From Escherichia virus TH54, in sequence record MT446420.1: DNA of 64,000 bases, one strand, 5' to 3'. Under the pieces are notes generated by a model. It was not told the origin of the DNA, made no database searches, and saw nothing but the letters and a program-made list of their open reading frames with translations. The position numbers and the translations under genes are program-made. Below, one piece after another: positions 1,958-46,781 of the stretch. Within the stretch, counting starts at the first letter, position 1. The number at the start of each line of letters is the position of its first letter.

Positions 1958-1994
1958 TTTATTCTCCAGTTATTTGGTAACTCAGTATGGGACC

Positions 1995-2024
1995 ATTATG
2001 TCATAGCCCCATTTGATTGTACAC
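1995..2024 (-). promoter_or_regulatory. early promoter cassette (AAAAAGTAGTGTACA ... CATAAT)
   Basis: Minus-strand A-tract, GTGTAC -35-like box, ~18-nt spacer, CATAAT, conserved leader. Confidence 0.5.
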
Positions 2025-2030
2025 TACTTT

Positions 2031-2402
2031 TTACTGAATATCAAAAGTTGCTTTAATCAGTGCAATGACTTCCGCCGCATTTTTATGATTTACCTGCACA
2101 TAAATGGTTTGGGTATCAACAGCAGGAGCATCGCCATCAACTTCCAGGAAGTGGCAGAATTCCCATTCACCAAGTTCAAAGTACTCATCATCATCACCCA
2201 TACTATTCAGGATGGTGCCATCTTTCATTTTAACTTTTTCAACAAAATAATCACCTTCAATATAACACATATCCAGGACTTTGAAGGAATTGCCATGTTG
2301 TTCCATCAACTTGGCTATGCACGAATTATCATCAGGACTACCAGCGATGAATTGTTTTTTAGCAGCAGGGTCTAATACGTAAAATTTACCAGTTTCCATC
2401 AT
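2031..2402 (-). CDS. hypothetical protein, paralog of 2749..3111
   Basis: 123 aa; shares GDD(D)EYFEL.E.EF and C-terminal ..I.LI/LQKAF motifs with 2749..3111. Confidence 0.5.
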   Translation of the reverse strand: MMETGKFYVLDPAAKKQFIAGSPDDNSCIAKLMEQHGNSFKVLDMCYIEGDYFVEKVKMKDGTILNSMGDDDEYFELGEWEFCHFLEVDGDAPAVDTQTIYVQVNHKNAAEVIALIKATFDIQ

Positions 2403-2458
2403 TTTAATTTCCTCATTTCAGTTGGGAACATATTAGCATTTTCCCGTTGGTTTGTATA

Positions 2459-2686
2459 CTAAGCTTCAATCAAATTCATATAAAATTCAGCGTCTTCCGG
2501 GTGCATCCCTTCGCAATATTCATTTTGCATAAAGCGGGTAAGGTCTTCAAGAGGACCTTGAACTTCAATTTGAATACTAAAGAATTGGGTATCTTTAATG
2601 TAAGTCATACACAAAGAAGGATACCGATTACGAATAACTTCGTAAGTGTATTCAAAATCAACGATATCAATATTAACTTTAGCCAT
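2459..2686 (-). CDS. hypothetical protein
   Basis: 75-aa ORF between the two paralogs. Confidence 0.4.
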
Positions 2687-2748
2687 TTTATTTTCCTCAT
2701 GTAGTTGATAGGTCTATAATAACATAATCATAGACCCGTTGTAAACTG

Positions 2749-3111
2749 CTATTTGAAAGCTTTTTGTAGAAGTTCAATGATTTGGTCGACGTTATTAGCA
2801 TCCACAACACAATTAATAGAAACCGCCCCCGAAGGTGTTTTTGCATAATTGGAGTATTCACGGAAGCAATAAAACTCTTCTTCACTAAGTTCAAAATAAT
2901 CATCACCCATGCCATCATCATTATAGATTGCACCATTAGCACAAATGATTTCGGTTACATAATCATAGCCGTCTGCACTTGATATTGATTTAACTTCAAA
3001 CCAACCGCCATTTTCTTGGATGATGTCGACCATACTAGCATTCGATGAACTAATATCAATGAAAGATTTAATACGATGTGGATTGAACTCATATTTTTTG
3101 CCGATTTCCAT
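2749..3111 (-). CDS. hypothetical protein, paralog of 2031..2402
   Basis: 120 aa; ATG at 3111 confirmed; promoter/leader cassette upstream. Confidence 0.5.
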   Translation of the reverse strand: MEIGKKYEFNPHRIKSFIDISSSNASMVDIIQENGGWFEVKSISSADGYDYVTEIICANGAIYNDDGMGDDYFELSEEEFYCFREYSNYAKTPSGAVSINCVVDANNVDQIIELLQKAFK

Positions 3112-3149
3112 TTTTATTTCCTCAGTTGTTATCAGTAGTTGATGGAATC

Positions 3150-3179
3150 ATTATGCCTTAGCTCAAAGGACTTGTACAC
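3150..3179 (-). promoter_or_regulatory. early promoter cassette after the gene 32 terminator
   Basis: Minus-strand AAAAAGTAGTGTACAAGTCCTTTGAGCTAAGGCATAAT then leader CATCAACTACTGA. Confidence 0.5.
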
Positions 3180-3193
3180 TACTTTTTGAAAAT

Positions 3194-3215
3194 AAAAAAG
3201 GGACCCGAAGGTCCC
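3194..3215 (-). terminator. intrinsic terminator after gene 32
   Basis: Minus-strand GGGACC-TTCG-GGTCCC then T-run. Confidence 0.6.
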
Positions 3216-3220
3216 CTATA

Positions 3221-44315: not shown

Positions 44316-44316
44316 A

Positions 44317-44676
44317 TTAACCTCGCTTCATGAAGGCATTAAAAATCTGGTCATCAATATCAGTAGGCAGTTCTTGAGCTTTAACCCAAGCCCCTTCCAG
44401 AATGTCATTTGCTTCAGTAGATATCATGACCCCAATTTCAGGGTTTCCGGTTATCCATGCTGCACAATCGCGTACATTCTTTTTATCAAATGGATAGCCA
44501 CGAGTATCTTCATAAGGTCCACTCATTACCATAAATGAGCGAGCCTTTATGATAACATCATCTTTAACGATAATATAACCAATCGCCTGATTAAACCGAG
44601 GCTCACGAAATTCATAACGGGCATTACCATTATTATTGCTCACCAGTTCAAAATTCAGAAAATTATAATAACTCAT
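44317..44676 (-). CDS. hypothetical protein, paralog of 44678..45118
   Basis: 119 aa; C-terminus TDIDDQIFNAFMKRG matches SVDDQIFNAFMKRD of neighbour; ~45-bp near-identical DNA at both 3' ends. Confidence 0.45.
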   Translation of the reverse strand: MSYYNFLNFELVSNNNGNARYEFREPRFNQAIGYIIVKDDVIIKARSFMVMSGPYEDTRGYPFDKKNVRDCAAWITGNPEIGVMISTEANDILEGAWVKAQELPTDIDDQIFNAFMKRG

Positions 44677-44677
44677 A

Positions 44678-45118
44678 TTAATCTCGCTTCATGAAGGCAT
44701 TAAAAATTTGGTCGTCAACTGAATATACAGGGGTTTCCAGAAGTTTCAAAAGACTGTTTTTAATGTACTTACCCGGGATACCCATATTAACAATACTGTC
44801 ATTCAATTCATTATCAGGGTTGATGTCTTTAAATTCAAACCCATCAAATTCAACCTTGTCAGGAATACCATCAGCGAAAAAATAAACCAATTGGTGCATT
44901 GTATTGCGCGAAAATAATTTAGACTTGACCGCAATAAGTTCTTGCCAATGGTTTAATTCTTTGTTAAGAAGTTTATGAGCAAACGTAATTCTATTATCAC
45001 TATCAACAAGAAAATAACCCAGGTATTGAATGGGTTCGTCGCTCCAAAACATCCTGTATGCTTGTGCATTTTGATTTTTACAACGAAGTTTTTTGATAAC
45101 TAAATTTCTGTTAATCAT
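44678..45118 (-). CDS. hypothetical protein, paralog of 44317..44676
   Basis: Track ORF 44678..45253 shortened to ATG 45118 (AGGTGA SD) = 146 aa, abutting the upstream gene. Confidence 0.45.
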   Translation of the reverse strand: MINRNLVIKKLRCKNQNAQAYRMFWSDEPIQYLGYFLVDSDNRITFAHKLLNKELNHWQELIAVKSKLFSRNTMHQLVYFFADGIPDKVEFDGFEFKDINPDNELNDSIVNMGIPGKYIKNSLLKLLETPVYSVDDQIFNAFMKRD

Positions 45119-45119
45119 T

Positions 45120-45413
45120 TTATTCACCTGTAACCCATTGAACAATCTTGCTGTTGTCAAATGAAGCATCGCAATACAGAACATAGTTATACTGCATAAC
45201 GTCACCAGAAGCCAGTTGGTCAGATACTTCTTTAACCATATCTGGGCGGTCACGTTTAGTAATATTCATGATATCAGCATAAATCTGATGTTCAACATCA
45301 GTCTGGTCAGCAGTCATAGACCACTCACAAAGGTCTTTATCAAGTCCAGCGGTTACAGGAGCTGTACCACATGATGCTACGGTAAGAATTGCCGCGATTA
45401 ATAACTTTTTCAT
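45120..45413 (-). CDS. exported protein with signal peptide/lipobox (Spackle-like candidate)
   Basis: 97 aa; MKKLLIAAILTVASCG...; same length as T4 Sp and carries a signal peptide, but Sp sequence was not verified. Confidence 0.45.
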   Translation of the reverse strand: MKKLLIAAILTVASCGTAPVTAGLDKDLCEWSMTADQTDVEHQIYADIMNITKRDRPDMVKEVSDQLASGDVMQYNYVLYCDASFDNSKIVQWVTGE

Positions 45414-45471
45414 TTCAATCTCCTCAGTAGTTGATAGGGATAATATACTGCATTATCCCTTTGTTGTACAC

Positions 45472-45813
45472 TTATTTTTCACCTTCAACTGAAAAACCGG
45501 TCAAGTTGTAATATTCAGCACGTGCAATATGAAGAGCTGCTTCAATATCAGTAAGGCAGATTTCTTCATTTAACAGTTGCGCTTCAACGGTCAAAATCAG
45601 ATTACGCAATGCGGTACCCTTACGCATGTCTACTTTATGAATTAGCTTGTCATCAACAAAAGCTTCAACAAGTGCATTATAGTTATCAGCAGTCTTCTGA
45701 ACATACCAGTGAATACCTGCGGGATGGAACATACTTGAGCGCTCAAAAGATGGAACGCCAACAGCACTCACTTTGATTGTTACTTTTACGCGGTCTTCTG
45801 GATTAAAAGCCAT
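45472..45813 (-). CDS. hypothetical protein, shares domain with 45814..46026
   Basis: 113 aa; NYNALVEAFVDDKLIHKVDM vs NNALVKAFVNDNKVFECDY. Confidence 0.4.
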   Translation of the reverse strand: MAFNPEDRVKVTIKVSAVGVPSFERSSMFHPAGIHWYVQKTADNYNALVEAFVDDKLIHKVDMRKGTALRNLILTVEAQLLNEEICLTDIEAALHIARAEYYNLTGFSVEGEK

Positions 45814-46026
45814 TTAGATTTCCTCAGATAAGTGGATACGATAATCACATTCAAAAACTTTATTGTCATTAACAAAGGCTTTCACCAGCGCATTATTCAC
45901 CTCTGCATACTGCACCGTAACCCATTCAATCATTTTTTGGTCACTAACATCCAGCGCGGTTTCTTTGGTAAACATATTACCATTTTCAAACCAACCAATA
46001 AACACTACGTTCTCTAATTTATACAT
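45814..46026 (-). CDS. hypothetical protein
   Basis: 70-aa ORF. Confidence 0.4.
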   Translation of the reverse strand: MYKLENVVFIGWFENGNMFTKETALDVSDQKMIEWVTVQYAEVNNALVKAFVNDNKVFECDYRIHLSEEI

Positions 46027-46344
46027 TTAGATTTCCTCACAAAACGCCCAGTCTGCGTGATAAACTGTTGCGCCTTTAGTATCATTTAAACAAACCACGT
46101 CAACAGGTGCAATCACACGATAAAGACGGGGTTCTCCTCCATACGAGCGAGCTGCTCTTCCTGCATAGATACGCGCCAAACCAATATCTTCAGTAAAAAA
46201 CACACGCCCTAAATTTTTCTTACGCCCAACTTCTGACAGAACACCAGTTGCATCAGGAGGGCAAAGCATATTTTGGATTCCAGCATTAGAGCTTGAGCCA
46301 TGGTAATAAACTTTGTATTCTGCCTTGCAATCAATGGTTTTCAT
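46027..46344 (-). CDS. hypothetical protein with NAD-binding-like Y-H-G-S motif (possible mini ADP-ribosyltransferase fold)
   Basis: 105 aa; VYYHGSSSNAGI...GRVFFTEDIGLARIYAG resembles the beta1 HG[ST] and Tyr-containing strands of diphtheria-toxin/PARP-type ARTs; by-eye motif comparison only. Confidence 0.35.
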   Translation of the reverse strand: MKTIDCKAEYKVYYHGSSSNAGIQNMLCPPDATGVLSEVGRKKNLGRVFFTEDIGLARIYAGRAARSYGGEPRLYRVIAPVDVVCLNDTKGATVYHADWAFCEEI

Positions 46345-46403
46345 TTTATTCTCCAGTAGTTGATAGGTCTATAATAACACAACTAACGGAGAAGTAAACT
46401 GTT

Positions 46404-46781
46404 TTAGAGATGATTGCAATAAGCAGTCCATTCAACATGGACCTTTTCACCATTAAAATCAAAAGCGATAATACGAGCGGCTTCATCTACATACTTATAC
46501 ATGTGATGGAAACTAACAGGAATATATTCACCTTTTCGGCAAACCATGATTTTATCGCCTTTAAACAAGGCTAAGTCATCATAAATCTCTTTAAGGCCGA
46601 TGAAATCGATTTCACGACCACGTCTGCCTTCAATCTGGATAATAGCTTTACCTGGGTAAAAATCGTAGGCGATTGGTACATTAGCTCGTGGAGCCAGGAT
46701 AACGAATTCAATTGCATTTTCAGAGAATTCTACATTTACGGATTCAGTGATTGCTTTAACGATGGCTTGTGAAAAGTTCAT
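46404..46781 (-). CDS. hypothetical protein
   Basis: 125-aa ORF, first gene after the tandem early promoters. Confidence 0.4.
   Translation of the reverse strand: MNFSQAIVKAITESVNVEFSENAIEFVILAPRANVPIAYDFYPGKAIIQIEGRRGREIDFIGLKEIYDDLALFKGDKIMVCRKGEYIPVSFHHMYKYVDEAARIIAFDFNGEKVHVEWTAYCNHL

Follow-up and report, generated by a model that had tools for sequence, protein, structure and literature searches.

Probable early promoter cassettes with predicted internal stem-loops in the Gaprivervirus Escherichia virus TH54

The closest described counterparts of the elements considered here, a family of repeated minus-strand cassettes in a 64,000-nucleotide stretch of Escherichia virus TH54 (record MT446420.1; the whole stretch is referred to below as the window), are the promoter-early stem-loop (PeSL) cassettes of phages RB49 and phi1, whose stem-loop may occupy any of five places: upstream, over the -35, in the spacer, over the -10 or downstream of the -10 (Arbiol 2010, PMC2839356). 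Mini-circles were demonstrated in RB49/phi1, and an RB49 PeSL stem-loop cut lacZ expression as much as rrnB T1 (PMC2839356); a later account also describes PeSL cassettes in T4/PST and nt-1/KVP40 (Comeau 2014, PMC4122927). T4 early promoters combine UP, -35, TGn and -10 elements with extra consensus regions (Hinton review, PMC2988021). A hairpin that masks the translation initiation region (TIR) is described for T4 e, soc, 49 and I-TevI, and a promoter inside that hairpin yields a translatable RNA (PMC3014915). Strong RegB/S1 sites are defined by GG*AG(R)A(Y)A(R)AA (Durand et al., as given in PMC3014915), and secondary structure protects RNA from RegB (PMC3014915).

By megablast the window belongs to the T4-like genus Gaprivervirus, with VR20, VR7, SP18, CJ20 and the TH series matching at 92-98% identity; VR20 is about 94% identical to it. 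A broader scan combined with inspection gave 21 cassettes, spread over 1955-63392. Every one is on the minus strand and faces early-gene homologues, and we take them, with good though not complete confidence, to be early sigma-70-type promoters of a T4-like phage arranged as compact cassettes of the PeSL type. A sequence-only reading of the same DNA had described at least 13 such sites ending at 46410, with about 18 nucleotides separating the -35 region from the -10. Its coordinates all proved correct and the spacing measures 16-18 nucleotides, whereas the range was drawn too short and eight cassettes (17462, 24513, 29776, 39349, 46849, 50936, 60640 and 63385) come in addition to its list.

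The repeats themselves lie far above chance. The 15-mer AAAAAGTAGTGTACA is present in six exact copies, all on the minus strand, and at up to three mismatches it gives 13 matches against 3.3 expected, a figure equalled in none of 100 shuffles. Ten of these 13 stand in a genuine promoter context; the near-matches at 6170, 13160 (plus strand) and 14617 fall in coding sequence without a -10 and probably arose by chance. Two leader families are similarly over-represented: leader A (CTATCAACTACTGA) has six matches at up to two mismatches against 0.47 expected, along with a degenerate seventh copy at 2701-2709, and leader B (ATTCCATACTGAGTTAC) has four against 0.21. A third common spacer-plus-leader, class C (aactcttGGGGTCAgagTATAATGACCCCACTGGAG), is found at 22760 and 33532. 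We tried and gave up an exact 15-mer scan of IMG/VR, in which most matches were chance ones in unrelated contigs and the useful T4-like loci numbered about a dozen.

The cassettes are built to a common plan, which runs from an A-tract resembling an UP element through a -35 of the form GT(G/T)TAC(A/T), a spacer of 16-18 nucleotides, a -10 TAnnnT and a conserved start region CC(C/T)A to a Shine-Dalgarno (SD) sequence and an ATG. Aligned on the hexamers, the consensus reads aAAAAgtaGTGTACAa, N16-18, (tg)nTATAAT, gaxCC(c/t)AT. The A-rich tract before the -35 has the consensus aAAAAgtaG, and at 29776 the T-run of a terminator takes its place. The GTTTAC form of the -35, the spacer and the -10 are all present in 19 of the 21; cassettes 60640 and 63385 lack a -35 but possess TGnTAnAAT. 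A TGn-extended -10 is found in about nine (2023, 2745, 24513, 29776, 39349, 46398, 46849, 60640 and 63385). Usual spacing would place +1 at the A of CC(T)ATCAAC, CCATACTGAG or CCCCACTGGAG, and from this predicted start the ATG lies 10-45 nucleotides downstream in every cassette. Between them the cassettes fill 21 of the roughly 35 intergenic gaps of at least 45 nucleotides in the early regions, and scan and inspection of the window found none in the plus-strand tail-fibre block. A generic sigma-70 scan was not enriched over shuffles (68 vs 55.5; 47 vs 52.9); the informative motif for these promoters is the phage-specific extended one alone. Where an extended -10 stands without a -35 (TGaTAAAAT at 60614-60622, TGgTATAAT at 63377-63385 and TGtTATAAT in the gene 41 slot of relatives, for example near 41690 in genome L003), the promoter sits directly after a terminator or within a hairpin.

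The cassettes and neighbouring terminators are given below, where (-) is the minus strand, N16-N18 the spacer length, and z the folding score.

1955-2032 (-): cassette 2023; AAAAAGTAG-TGTACA, N17, CATAAT, leader B (CCATACTGAGTTAC), SD GGAGAATAAAA, ATG 1957; hairpin ATGGGGCTAT/ATGGTCCCAT around the -10, z = -3.4
2684-2754 (-): cassette 2745; TTTACA, N18, TGtTATTAT, leader A variant (CCTATCAACTAC), SD GAGGA, ATG 2686; hairpin GGGTCTATGAT/ATTATAGACCT around the -10, z = -3.0
3109-3187 (-): cassette 3178; exact 15-mer, CATAAT, chimeric leader with a B-like start gattCCAT followed by A-like CAACTACTGA, a second ACTGAGGA as working SD, ATG 3111; without internal hairpin, z = +0.8
3188-3216 (-): intrinsic terminator GGGGACCttcgGGTCCC and T-run, directly upstream of cassette 3178
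17382-17471 (-): cassette 17462; AAAATCATG-TGTACA, N17, TATAAT, leader start ACTGAAC, ATG 17384; stem around the -10 weak and AU-rich, z = -0.6
20249-20338 (-): cassette 20329; exact 15-mer, CATAAT, leader B, SD GGAGAATAAAA, ATG 20251; without internal hairpin
20339-20366 (-): intrinsic terminator AGGGCCCttcgGGGTCCT and TTTTTTATTTT, directly upstream of cassette 20329
22685-22769 (-): cassette 22760, upstream of the ndd homologue; TATACA, N17, TATAAT, class C, fossil SD ACTGGAG followed by working SD ACTGAGGA, ATG 22687; hairpin GGGGTCA/TGACCCC around the -10, z = -4.3
23691-23756 (-): cassette 23747; TGTACA, N16, TATAAT, leader A, ATG 23693; hairpin of 12-13 base pairs between spacer CTCCGGTGGTTG and leader CAACTACTGGAG with the SD in the stem, z = -5.6
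24103-24176 (-): cassette 24167; exact 15-mer, TATAAT, leader B, SD ACTGGAG, ATG 24105; hairpin TCAGTATGG/CCATACTGA around the -10
24452-24522 (-): cassette 24513; TTTACA, N17, TGtAATAAT, AUG 24454; hairpin TAATAATGTCCTCA/TGAGGACATTATCA beginning in the -10 and burying SD and AUG, z = -4.2
29728-29803 (-): cassette 29776, terminator included; TGTACA, N17, TGtTAAGAT, SD GAGGTG, ATG 29730
29786-29803 (-): terminator GGTCTCCttcgGGAGACC and T-run, followed immediately by cassette 29776
33459-33541 (-): cassette 33532, upstream of the motB homologue; class C, GGGGTCA/TGACCCC around the -10, leader carrying ACTGGAGAATAAAC, an SD module known from other cassettes but here minus its ATG, ATG 33461
34550-34621 (-): cassette 34612; exact 15-mer, CATAAT, leader A, SD GGATAACAAAA, ATG 34552; leader hairpin TCTCATCA/TGATGAGG, its 5' arm interrupted by the predicted +1
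37938-38022 (-): cassette 38013; exact 15-mer, N16, TATAAT, leader B variant (CCGTACTGAGTTAT), ATG 37940; stem weak in the window, ATGGAT/ATCCAT in orthologues
38686-38757 (-): cassette 38748; TGTACA, N17, TAATAT, leader A, SD GGATAATAAAA, ATG 38688; leader hairpin CCTATCA/TGAT-G-AGG
39291-39358 (-): cassette 39349; TTTACT, N17, TGaCATAAT, AUG 39293; 15-base-pair hairpin CATAATGGTCTTTCT/AGAGAGGCCATTATG burying SD and AUG, z = -6.1
45411-45479 (-): cassette 45470, upstream of the spackle homologue; AAAAATAAG-TGTACA, N17, TATATT, leader A, SD GAGGAG, ATG 45413; hairpin GGGATAAT/ATTATCCC around the -10
46342-46407 (-): cassette 46398; TTTACT, N16, TGtTATTAT, leader A, SD GGAGAATAAAA, ATG 46344; 13-base-pair hairpin between spacer TCTCCGTTAGTTG and leader CAACTACTGGAGA with the SD in the stem, z = -4.0
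46779-46858 (-): cassette 46849; TTTACA, N17, TGgTACTAT, spacer-internal stem CTACCAC/GTGGTAc, ATG 46781
46936-46953 (-): intrinsic terminator AAGGAGCtttgGCTCCTT and T-run after gene 41, at the left edge of a variable slot
50868-50945 (-): cassette 50936; TTTACA, N17, TATGAT, leader A minus TAC (CCATCAACTGATGA; CCATCAACTACTGATGA in relatives), ATG 50870; spacer-internal stem ACGGCA/TGCCGT, z = -3.2
60591-60660 (-): cassette 60640; terminator GGAAGCctagtGCTTCC and T-run, then the -35-less extended -10 TGaTAAAAT, predicted +1 at ACTGAGGAG, GGATGATAAAA fitting the RegB consensus, ATG 60593
63326-63392 (-): cassette 63385; class-C-like, -35-less extended -10 TGgTATAAT within hairpin GGGGTCAT/ATGACCCC, leader carrying GGATAATAAAA and working SD ACTGAGGA, ATG 63328; z = -2.9

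Compared with T4 early promoters, the cassettes agree in the A-tract and GT(T/G)TAC (an example of this pattern from the T4 early region is cgataaaaagttGTTTACT), in spacing, -10, orientation and gene neighbourhood. They differ in a genus-specific -35 variant, TGTACA, in having TGn in only about 40% of cases and in their two or three sharply defined leader families. The resemblance to PeSLs that the sequence-only reading had pointed out extends to the anatomy published for them (PMC2839356, PMC4122927): an AT-rich tract, a sigma-70-type promoter, a stem-loop of variable position, then SD and ATG. As in PeSLs, the cassettes are dense among small early open reading frames (ORFs) and some indel junctions lie at or inside them; RB49/phi1 also share the commonest place of the stem-loop, which is over the -10 or in the stretch separating it from the -35. 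Unlike PeSLs, which have TTGACA, the window uses GTGTACA or the T4-like GTTTAC as its -35, its stems are not polyG/polyC, and breakpoints are not enriched at the cassettes in this data set; a third of the stems are built from SD or AUG, whereas translation is never mentioned in the 2010 description (PMC2839356). The cassettes are thus a known kind of element with nothing new in kind, and it is the genus that is newly catalogued. We found no published promoter analysis for VR7, VR20 or SP18; an earlier description in the VR7 genome paper is possible. The catalogue provides a map of early transcription units for Gapriverviruses, which are of use in phage therapy and biocontrol and whose records carry no promoter annotation. 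It goes somewhat beyond the existing literature in the alternation of terminator and hairpin, the compensatory changes across genera, the part that early-promoter spacers play as an anti-SD, the perfect RegB sites and the negative breakpoint test.

Nearly every cassette holds one stem-loop. When the 50 nucleotides from just after the -35 hexamer are folded and scored against dinucleotide shuffles, z falls below -2 in 11 of 19 cassettes (mean -2.19). Among 300 random minus-strand 50-mers the share is 5.7% (mean -0.16; Mann-Whitney p = 1.7e-5), and among 86 translation-initiation regions that lack a cassette it is 5.8% (p = 3e-5). For the full set, 12 of 21 cassettes have z below -2. In most cassettes that follow no terminator, the 5' arm lies in the promoter spacer, the -10 sits in the loop or atop the 3' arm, and the 3' arm spans roughly -5 to +15. 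Because the 5' arm lies in the promoter and +1 is predicted inside the hairpin, only RNA arriving from upstream can fold it, and the mean z is -2.27 for read-through RNA (spacer to ATG) against +0.37 for the predicted own RNA of the cassette (+1 onward). The sequence-only reading had given every site an upstream terminator hairpin with a T-run, which holds for cassettes 3178, 20329, 29776 and 60640 and fails for most of the others, where the stem-loop is inside the promoter; by position there are four upstream terminators, about 10-11 stem-loops over the -10, three in the leader and two in the spacer. A further terminator lies 100 nucleotides upstream of cassette 46849, and with a canonical terminator at 4-5 of 21 we rejected it as a general component. 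The terminator at 29786-29803, between rIIA.1-like ORFs and the gene 39 region, is a perfect palindrome that scores on both strands.

The four cassettes that follow a terminator have no internal hairpin, and their mean z is +0.67 against -2.66 for the other 17 (p = 3e-4). A terminator and an internal hairpin thus seem to stand in for each other in a single task, one that has to involve RNA or polymerase coming from upstream.

Orthologous promoters in T4 and in CLBP2 of the sister genus Dhakavirus (77% identical) allow the stems to be followed over longer distances. Cassette 33532 is orthologous to T4 7227, upstream of motB (GTTTACAaactcttGGGACCagagTATAATGGTCCCgtggag and AACTCTTGGGACCAGAGTATAATGGTCCC in T4, GTGTACAaactcttGGGGTCAgagTATAATGACCCCactggag in the window), and 45470 to T4 20121 at the sp promoter, with AACTACTGAGGAGATT in both. 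CLBP2 has 16 minus-strand promoters of the form GTTTAC(A/T), N16-17, (TGa)TACTAT, AGACCTATCAAC, and z is below -2 in 8 of 15 Dhakavirus and 3 of 6 T4 promoters, so that the excess of hairpins reaches beyond the genus. For the class C helix we aligned nine distinct sequences, from the two window loci, their TH41, TH44 and TH57 orthologues, a paralogue confined to TH41 and TH44, and T4 motB. In this alignment 98.6% of cells are paired, none of 500 shuffles matches the observed score and slid registers pair at 32-51% only; variation is confined to two pairs, each of which covaries (UA/CG/GC/GU in one, GC/AU/GU in the other). At 23747 the Dhakavirus orthologue pairs CTCCATTAG with CTAATGGAG and keeps a 10-base-pair stem containing the SD, with one double change, G-C to U-A, and two changes of G.U to A-U. 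The stem enclosing the -10 of the ndd cassette is also kept there, with unrelated bases (CGAGAATC/GGTTCTCG vs GGGGTCA/TGACCCC). Judging from these alignments, the stem-loop is conserved through compensatory changes from T4 to Gaprivervirus. Within the genus about 8 of 11 single stem substitutions keep pairing, which alone is weak evidence because transitions dominate and often preserve pairing by chance.

Two T4 early-region promoters, at 8130-8230 and 13100-13198, have long hairpins (z = -7.0 and -4.4) in which the promoter spacer or the flank of the -10 pairs with translation signals of motB.2 and modA.2, either the SD alone or the SD together with the AUG; at 8230 the stem has 17 base pairs and the spacer UCCUC... 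pairs with SD GAGGA. We found no mention of these hairpins in the reviews consulted.

In part of the set the stem also contains the translation start. We computed the probability that SD and AUG are unpaired in read-through RNA and in the cassette's own RNA for 19 cassettes, and the values were 0.00 vs 0.53 at both 24513 and 39349, 0.19 vs 0.59 at 46398, 0.25 vs 0.52 at 34612, 0.27 vs 0.58 at 38748 and 0.37 vs 0.64 at 23747. Cassette 3178 (0.43 vs 0.73) is unique among the masked cassettes in having an upstream terminator and no internal hairpin, and accessibility did not differ in the other twelve. Masking of SD/AUG in read-through RNA thus appears, from these folding models, to be a property of about a third of the cassettes. 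The precedent is T4 e, soc, 49 and I-TevI, where SD/AUG is likewise paired in upstream transcripts with the promoter inside the hairpin, as predicted for 6-7 of the 19 window cassettes. Those promoters are late (TATAAATA), the genes being silent early and active late, whereas the internal promoters of the window have early-type -35 and -10 elements, and the effect here would discriminate transcript origin within the early period.

The sequence-only reading had also raised the possibility of a RegB-type target, and this idea gained ground. Exact matches to GGAG/U-RAYARAA number seven against 0.85 expected, all on the minus strand in early intergenic TIRs, although the excess is partly owed to the A-rich composition of initiation regions generally. 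Five coincide with cassette SDs (GGAGAATAAAA at 1957, 20251 and 46344; GGATAACAAAA at 34552; GGATAATAAAA at 38688) and the other two are in the leaders at 60615 and 63359. A RegB cut is predicted inside GG^AGAAUAAAA at 1957-1967, 20251-20261 and 46344-46354, and the GGAGAAUAAAA sites are candidate targets. Many cassette SDs (GAGGAAAT..., GAGGAGATT...) miss the full consensus of strong RegB/S1 sites. The regB gene is present in the genus, being annotated in VR20 (gp112). Because secondary structure protects RNA from RegB, folded read-through RNA would be expected to escape it.

We put forward the following model of how the cassettes work. Host sigma-70 polymerase would start about 7 nucleotides after the -10, inside the 3' arm of the hairpin, and since the start lies there the cassette's own mRNA would lack the 5' arm, remain unstructured and expose its SD. 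Read-through RNA would have both arms and fold, with the stem-loop insulating the gene or genes from upstream units: the incoming RNA might be attenuated or terminated, have its 3' end marked or stabilised, or be translationally masked. Where SD/AUG is buried, in about a third of cassettes, translation of the gene would depend entirely on the immediate-early transcript that starts at its own cassette, and exposed SDs fitting the strong RegB/S1 consensus would allow a short burst of expression followed by cleavage. That the spacer of many T4-family early promoters doubles as an 'anti-leader', and that a start inside the hairpin distinguishes RNAs by origin as a design rule shared by the early units of T4, Dhakaviruses and Gapriverviruses, is a possibility we hold with less than even confidence. 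The same caution applies to its content, that local RNAs might be open, translatable and RegB-cleavable and read-through RNAs folded, insulated or attenuated, partly untranslatable and RegB-resistant. If it is true, the hairpin is functionally interchangeable with an upstream terminator, and PeSL stem-loops acquire a regulatory rather than a recombinational role. Together, the alternation, the compensatory changes across genera and the RegB sites make a testable case for stem-loops that insulate against incoming RNA.

Several observations weigh against this reading of the cassettes. The contrast between terminator and hairpin was spotted post hoc with a terminator group of four, and the covariation comes from few sequences and two variable pairs. 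Five cassettes have no convincing stem in their window copy, TGn is present in only about nine of 21, and the +1 positions are predicted from spacing alone. SD masking, found in 6-7 of 19, had to be rejected as the general function of the hairpins, and regB is outside the window and seen only in its relative VR20. The promoter-internal hairpins also have no U-run after the 3' arm and, lacking it, are not canonical intrinsic terminators.

This last point bears also on a simpler account, in which the internal stem-loops are merely terminators or attenuators of upstream transcription, as has been proposed for PeSLs, and have no role in translation or RNA processing. We regard this as a real prospect, if somewhat short of an even one. 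In its favour are the mutual exclusion with canonical upstream terminators, the effect of the RB49 stem-loop on lacZ, similar to that of rrnB T1 (PMC2839356), and the 12 of 19 hairpins that leave the working SD untouched; yet none of the internal hairpins has a U-run, and in 6-7 cassettes the stem is made of SD/AUG itself and is kept across genera.

A second account, that the cassettes are chiefly recombination substrates of PeSL modular shuffling, in which similar cassettes on either side of small ORFs recombine so that gene modules are excised and inserted, possibly by way of mini-circles, seems to us rather unlikely. We compared the window with VR20, TH55, TH57, TH41, TH44, TH40 and TH22 by chained BLAST alignments, leaving out tail-fibre genes, and took gene junctions from minus-strand ORF calling with a few small genes added by hand. 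There are about 23 distinct indel or replacement events, of which four touch a cassette, about 16 lie at plain gene junctions and three or four are intragenic. Cassettes are carried by 21 of 104 junctions and were touched in four of 21 junction-located events, so that the enrichment at gene-content breakpoints expected from the sequence-only reading was not found (binomial p = 0.63, and p at least 0.63 for a chance expectation of 20-36%). A raw base-pair null does give about a threefold excess of breakpoints at cassettes, but this arises because cassettes are intergenic. The reading of PeSLs as shuffling substrates fails the intergenic null in this genus and does not generalise. Single ORFs without a promoter of their own, swapped at plain junctions, make up most of the indels; promoter-less ORFs have also been inserted beside cassettes, as with VR20 gp184 between the upstream gene and the cassette at 2033, and a TH55 ORF at 24105 between the cassette SD and the SD of the next gene. 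One insertion belongs to another mechanism altogether, a 163-amino-acid HNH homing endonuclease (25554-26045, minus strand; phrog_374, E = 8e-59; weak AP2-like C-terminal match) that lies between denB.1 and rIIB, with the break at 25549|26052, and is absent from all seven relatives. The conservation of orthologous cassettes from T4 to Gaprivervirus further argues for regulatory selection.

There are nevertheless places where the shuffling account fits, besides the mini-circles demonstrated in RB49/phi1 (PMC2839356). Breaks fall exactly at the edges of cassettes or within them at 2033, at 24103-24111 (relatives have an additional 156-nucleotide ORF inserted at the SD/ATG of cassette 24167), at 45478 (the ORF upstream of cassette 45470 is replaced in TH55, TH40 and TH22, the break lying exactly at the 5' edge of the A-tract) and at 46382. 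The hot spot is the slot between gene 41 and ORF 46344, at 46342-46953 (19303-19705 in L002, 39485-40198 in L005 and 41701-41733 in L003), which holds no ORF in TH55, TH57, TH40 and TH22, one in the window, a different one in VR20 and two in TH41 and TH44. Every one of these ORFs has a class A or B cassette of its own in front, and the terminator is at the left edge of the slot; the ORF of the window, headed by cassette 46849, encodes 125 amino acids and is window-only among the genomes compared. Only at this slot do cassettes flank both sides of a variable segment in one genome. The cassettes and the slot offer natural insertion points for engineering, with expression signals built in. The junction at 23103-23117 exists in three states: a plain stop-to-SD in the window and VR20, a 60-nucleotide promoter-only cassette (GTGTACAaactcttGGGAGCagagTATAATGCTCCC...) in TH41 and TH44 (about 15900-15960), and a small promoter-less ORF in TH40 (21958-22123). 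The TH44 orthologue of 20329 carries the spacer (CCCCTTGTCTTAGGA) of a gene 41 slot cassette although the loci are unrelated, and cassette 3178 is a chimera. Inter-cassette exchange occurs, yet it does not dominate gene-content change in this sample; what can be seen of a shuffling role is limited to one hot spot and some chimeric cassettes and does not amount to a demonstrated general rule.

All leader classes contain the core (T)ACTG(A/G)(A)G; all five copies of ACTGAGGA are on the minus strand, ACTGGAG is found there seven times and once on the opposite strand, and nearly all of these copies precede an ATG. Many leaders hold the ACTGRRG unit twice in tandem, with the fossil SD first and the working SD after it:

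3111-3143, 22687-22725, 1957-1988, 24105-24132, 20251-20294 and 33461-33497 (-): leaders with tandem ACTGRRG units

The chimeric leader of 3178 and the ATG-less module ACTGGAGAATAAAC at 33532 are footprints of past rearrangements within cassettes. The start region CCTATCAAC occurs at +1 in 11 of the 16 Dhakavirus early promoters, and because it is general there, leader A is largely a start-region consensus of the promoter class rather than a peculiarity of the window. The constant SD context attributed to both leaders by the sequence-only reading is real for leader A alone; leader B is joined to the -10 and ends at a variable distance of 5-25 nucleotides before the SD. In all probability the conserved leaders are part start-region consensus, part hairpin 3' arm and part working or fossil SD modules (ACTGRRG), and their spread among loci is likely to reflect descent from T4-like ancestors with occasional exchange between cassettes.

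Shared ancestry or gene conversion of ordinary promoters might even be the whole explanation, with neither hairpins nor leaders having a selected function, as could be argued from the chimeric cassettes and spacer swaps that show exchange between copies, and from the overall identity of 92-98% among the genomes compared. We consider this improbable in view of the compensatory pair changes, the ndd stem kept in Dhakavirus with unrelated sequence and the excess of hairpins over both shuffles and other intergenic sequence. Still less probable is that the leader boxes (ATCAACTACTGA, CCATACTGAGTT) are factor binding sites, either a DNA operator for early shut-off or a non-RegB RNA element, for although the core TACTGAG(TT) is invariant among orthologues with variable flanks, CCTATCAAC recurs in Dhakavirus as described and the mechanism of T4 early shut-off is reported as unresolved (PMC3014915, PMC2988021), the boxes join different structures in different cassettes, functional-looking cassettes (24513, 29776, 39349 and 46849) lack them, SD modules account for the ACTGRRG core, and an Rfam search gave no match, so that the leaders are not a catalogued RNA family. 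A tRNA search of the window found nothing.

The genes around the cassettes, named by annotation transfer from VR20, are those of the classical early/middle region of a T4-type genome. Near the start of the window the minus strand carries frd, 32, 59, 33, dsbA and rnh, followed by the plus-strand tail-fibre block with genes 34-38 and t (about 6450-17100). A long minus-strand block then comprises asiA, motA, 52, ndd, denB, rIIB, rIIA, 39, motB, dexA, dda and srd, and further modA/B, soc, 56, 61, sp, dmd, 41, uvsX, 43, regA, 44/62, 45, 46, 47 and 55. Within the tail-fibre block, the distal genes at 12421-16432 (plus strand; gp37/gp38 homologues) have little or no nucleotide similarity to relatives that are otherwise 92-98% identical, which looks like replacement of a host-range module. 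Two small minus-strand ORFs also vary among the relatives. That at 17604-17894 (96 amino acids, a member of phrog_8202) is absent from TH55, TH41, TH44, TH40 and TH22 and has a weak match to an Arn-type inhibitor of McrBC restriction (phrog_3151, E = 7e-6). The other, at 53740-53955 (71 amino acids; Pfam Phage_RB18_ORF43, E = 5e-32), is absent from TH55 and TH22, where the breaks coincide exactly with the gene boundaries.

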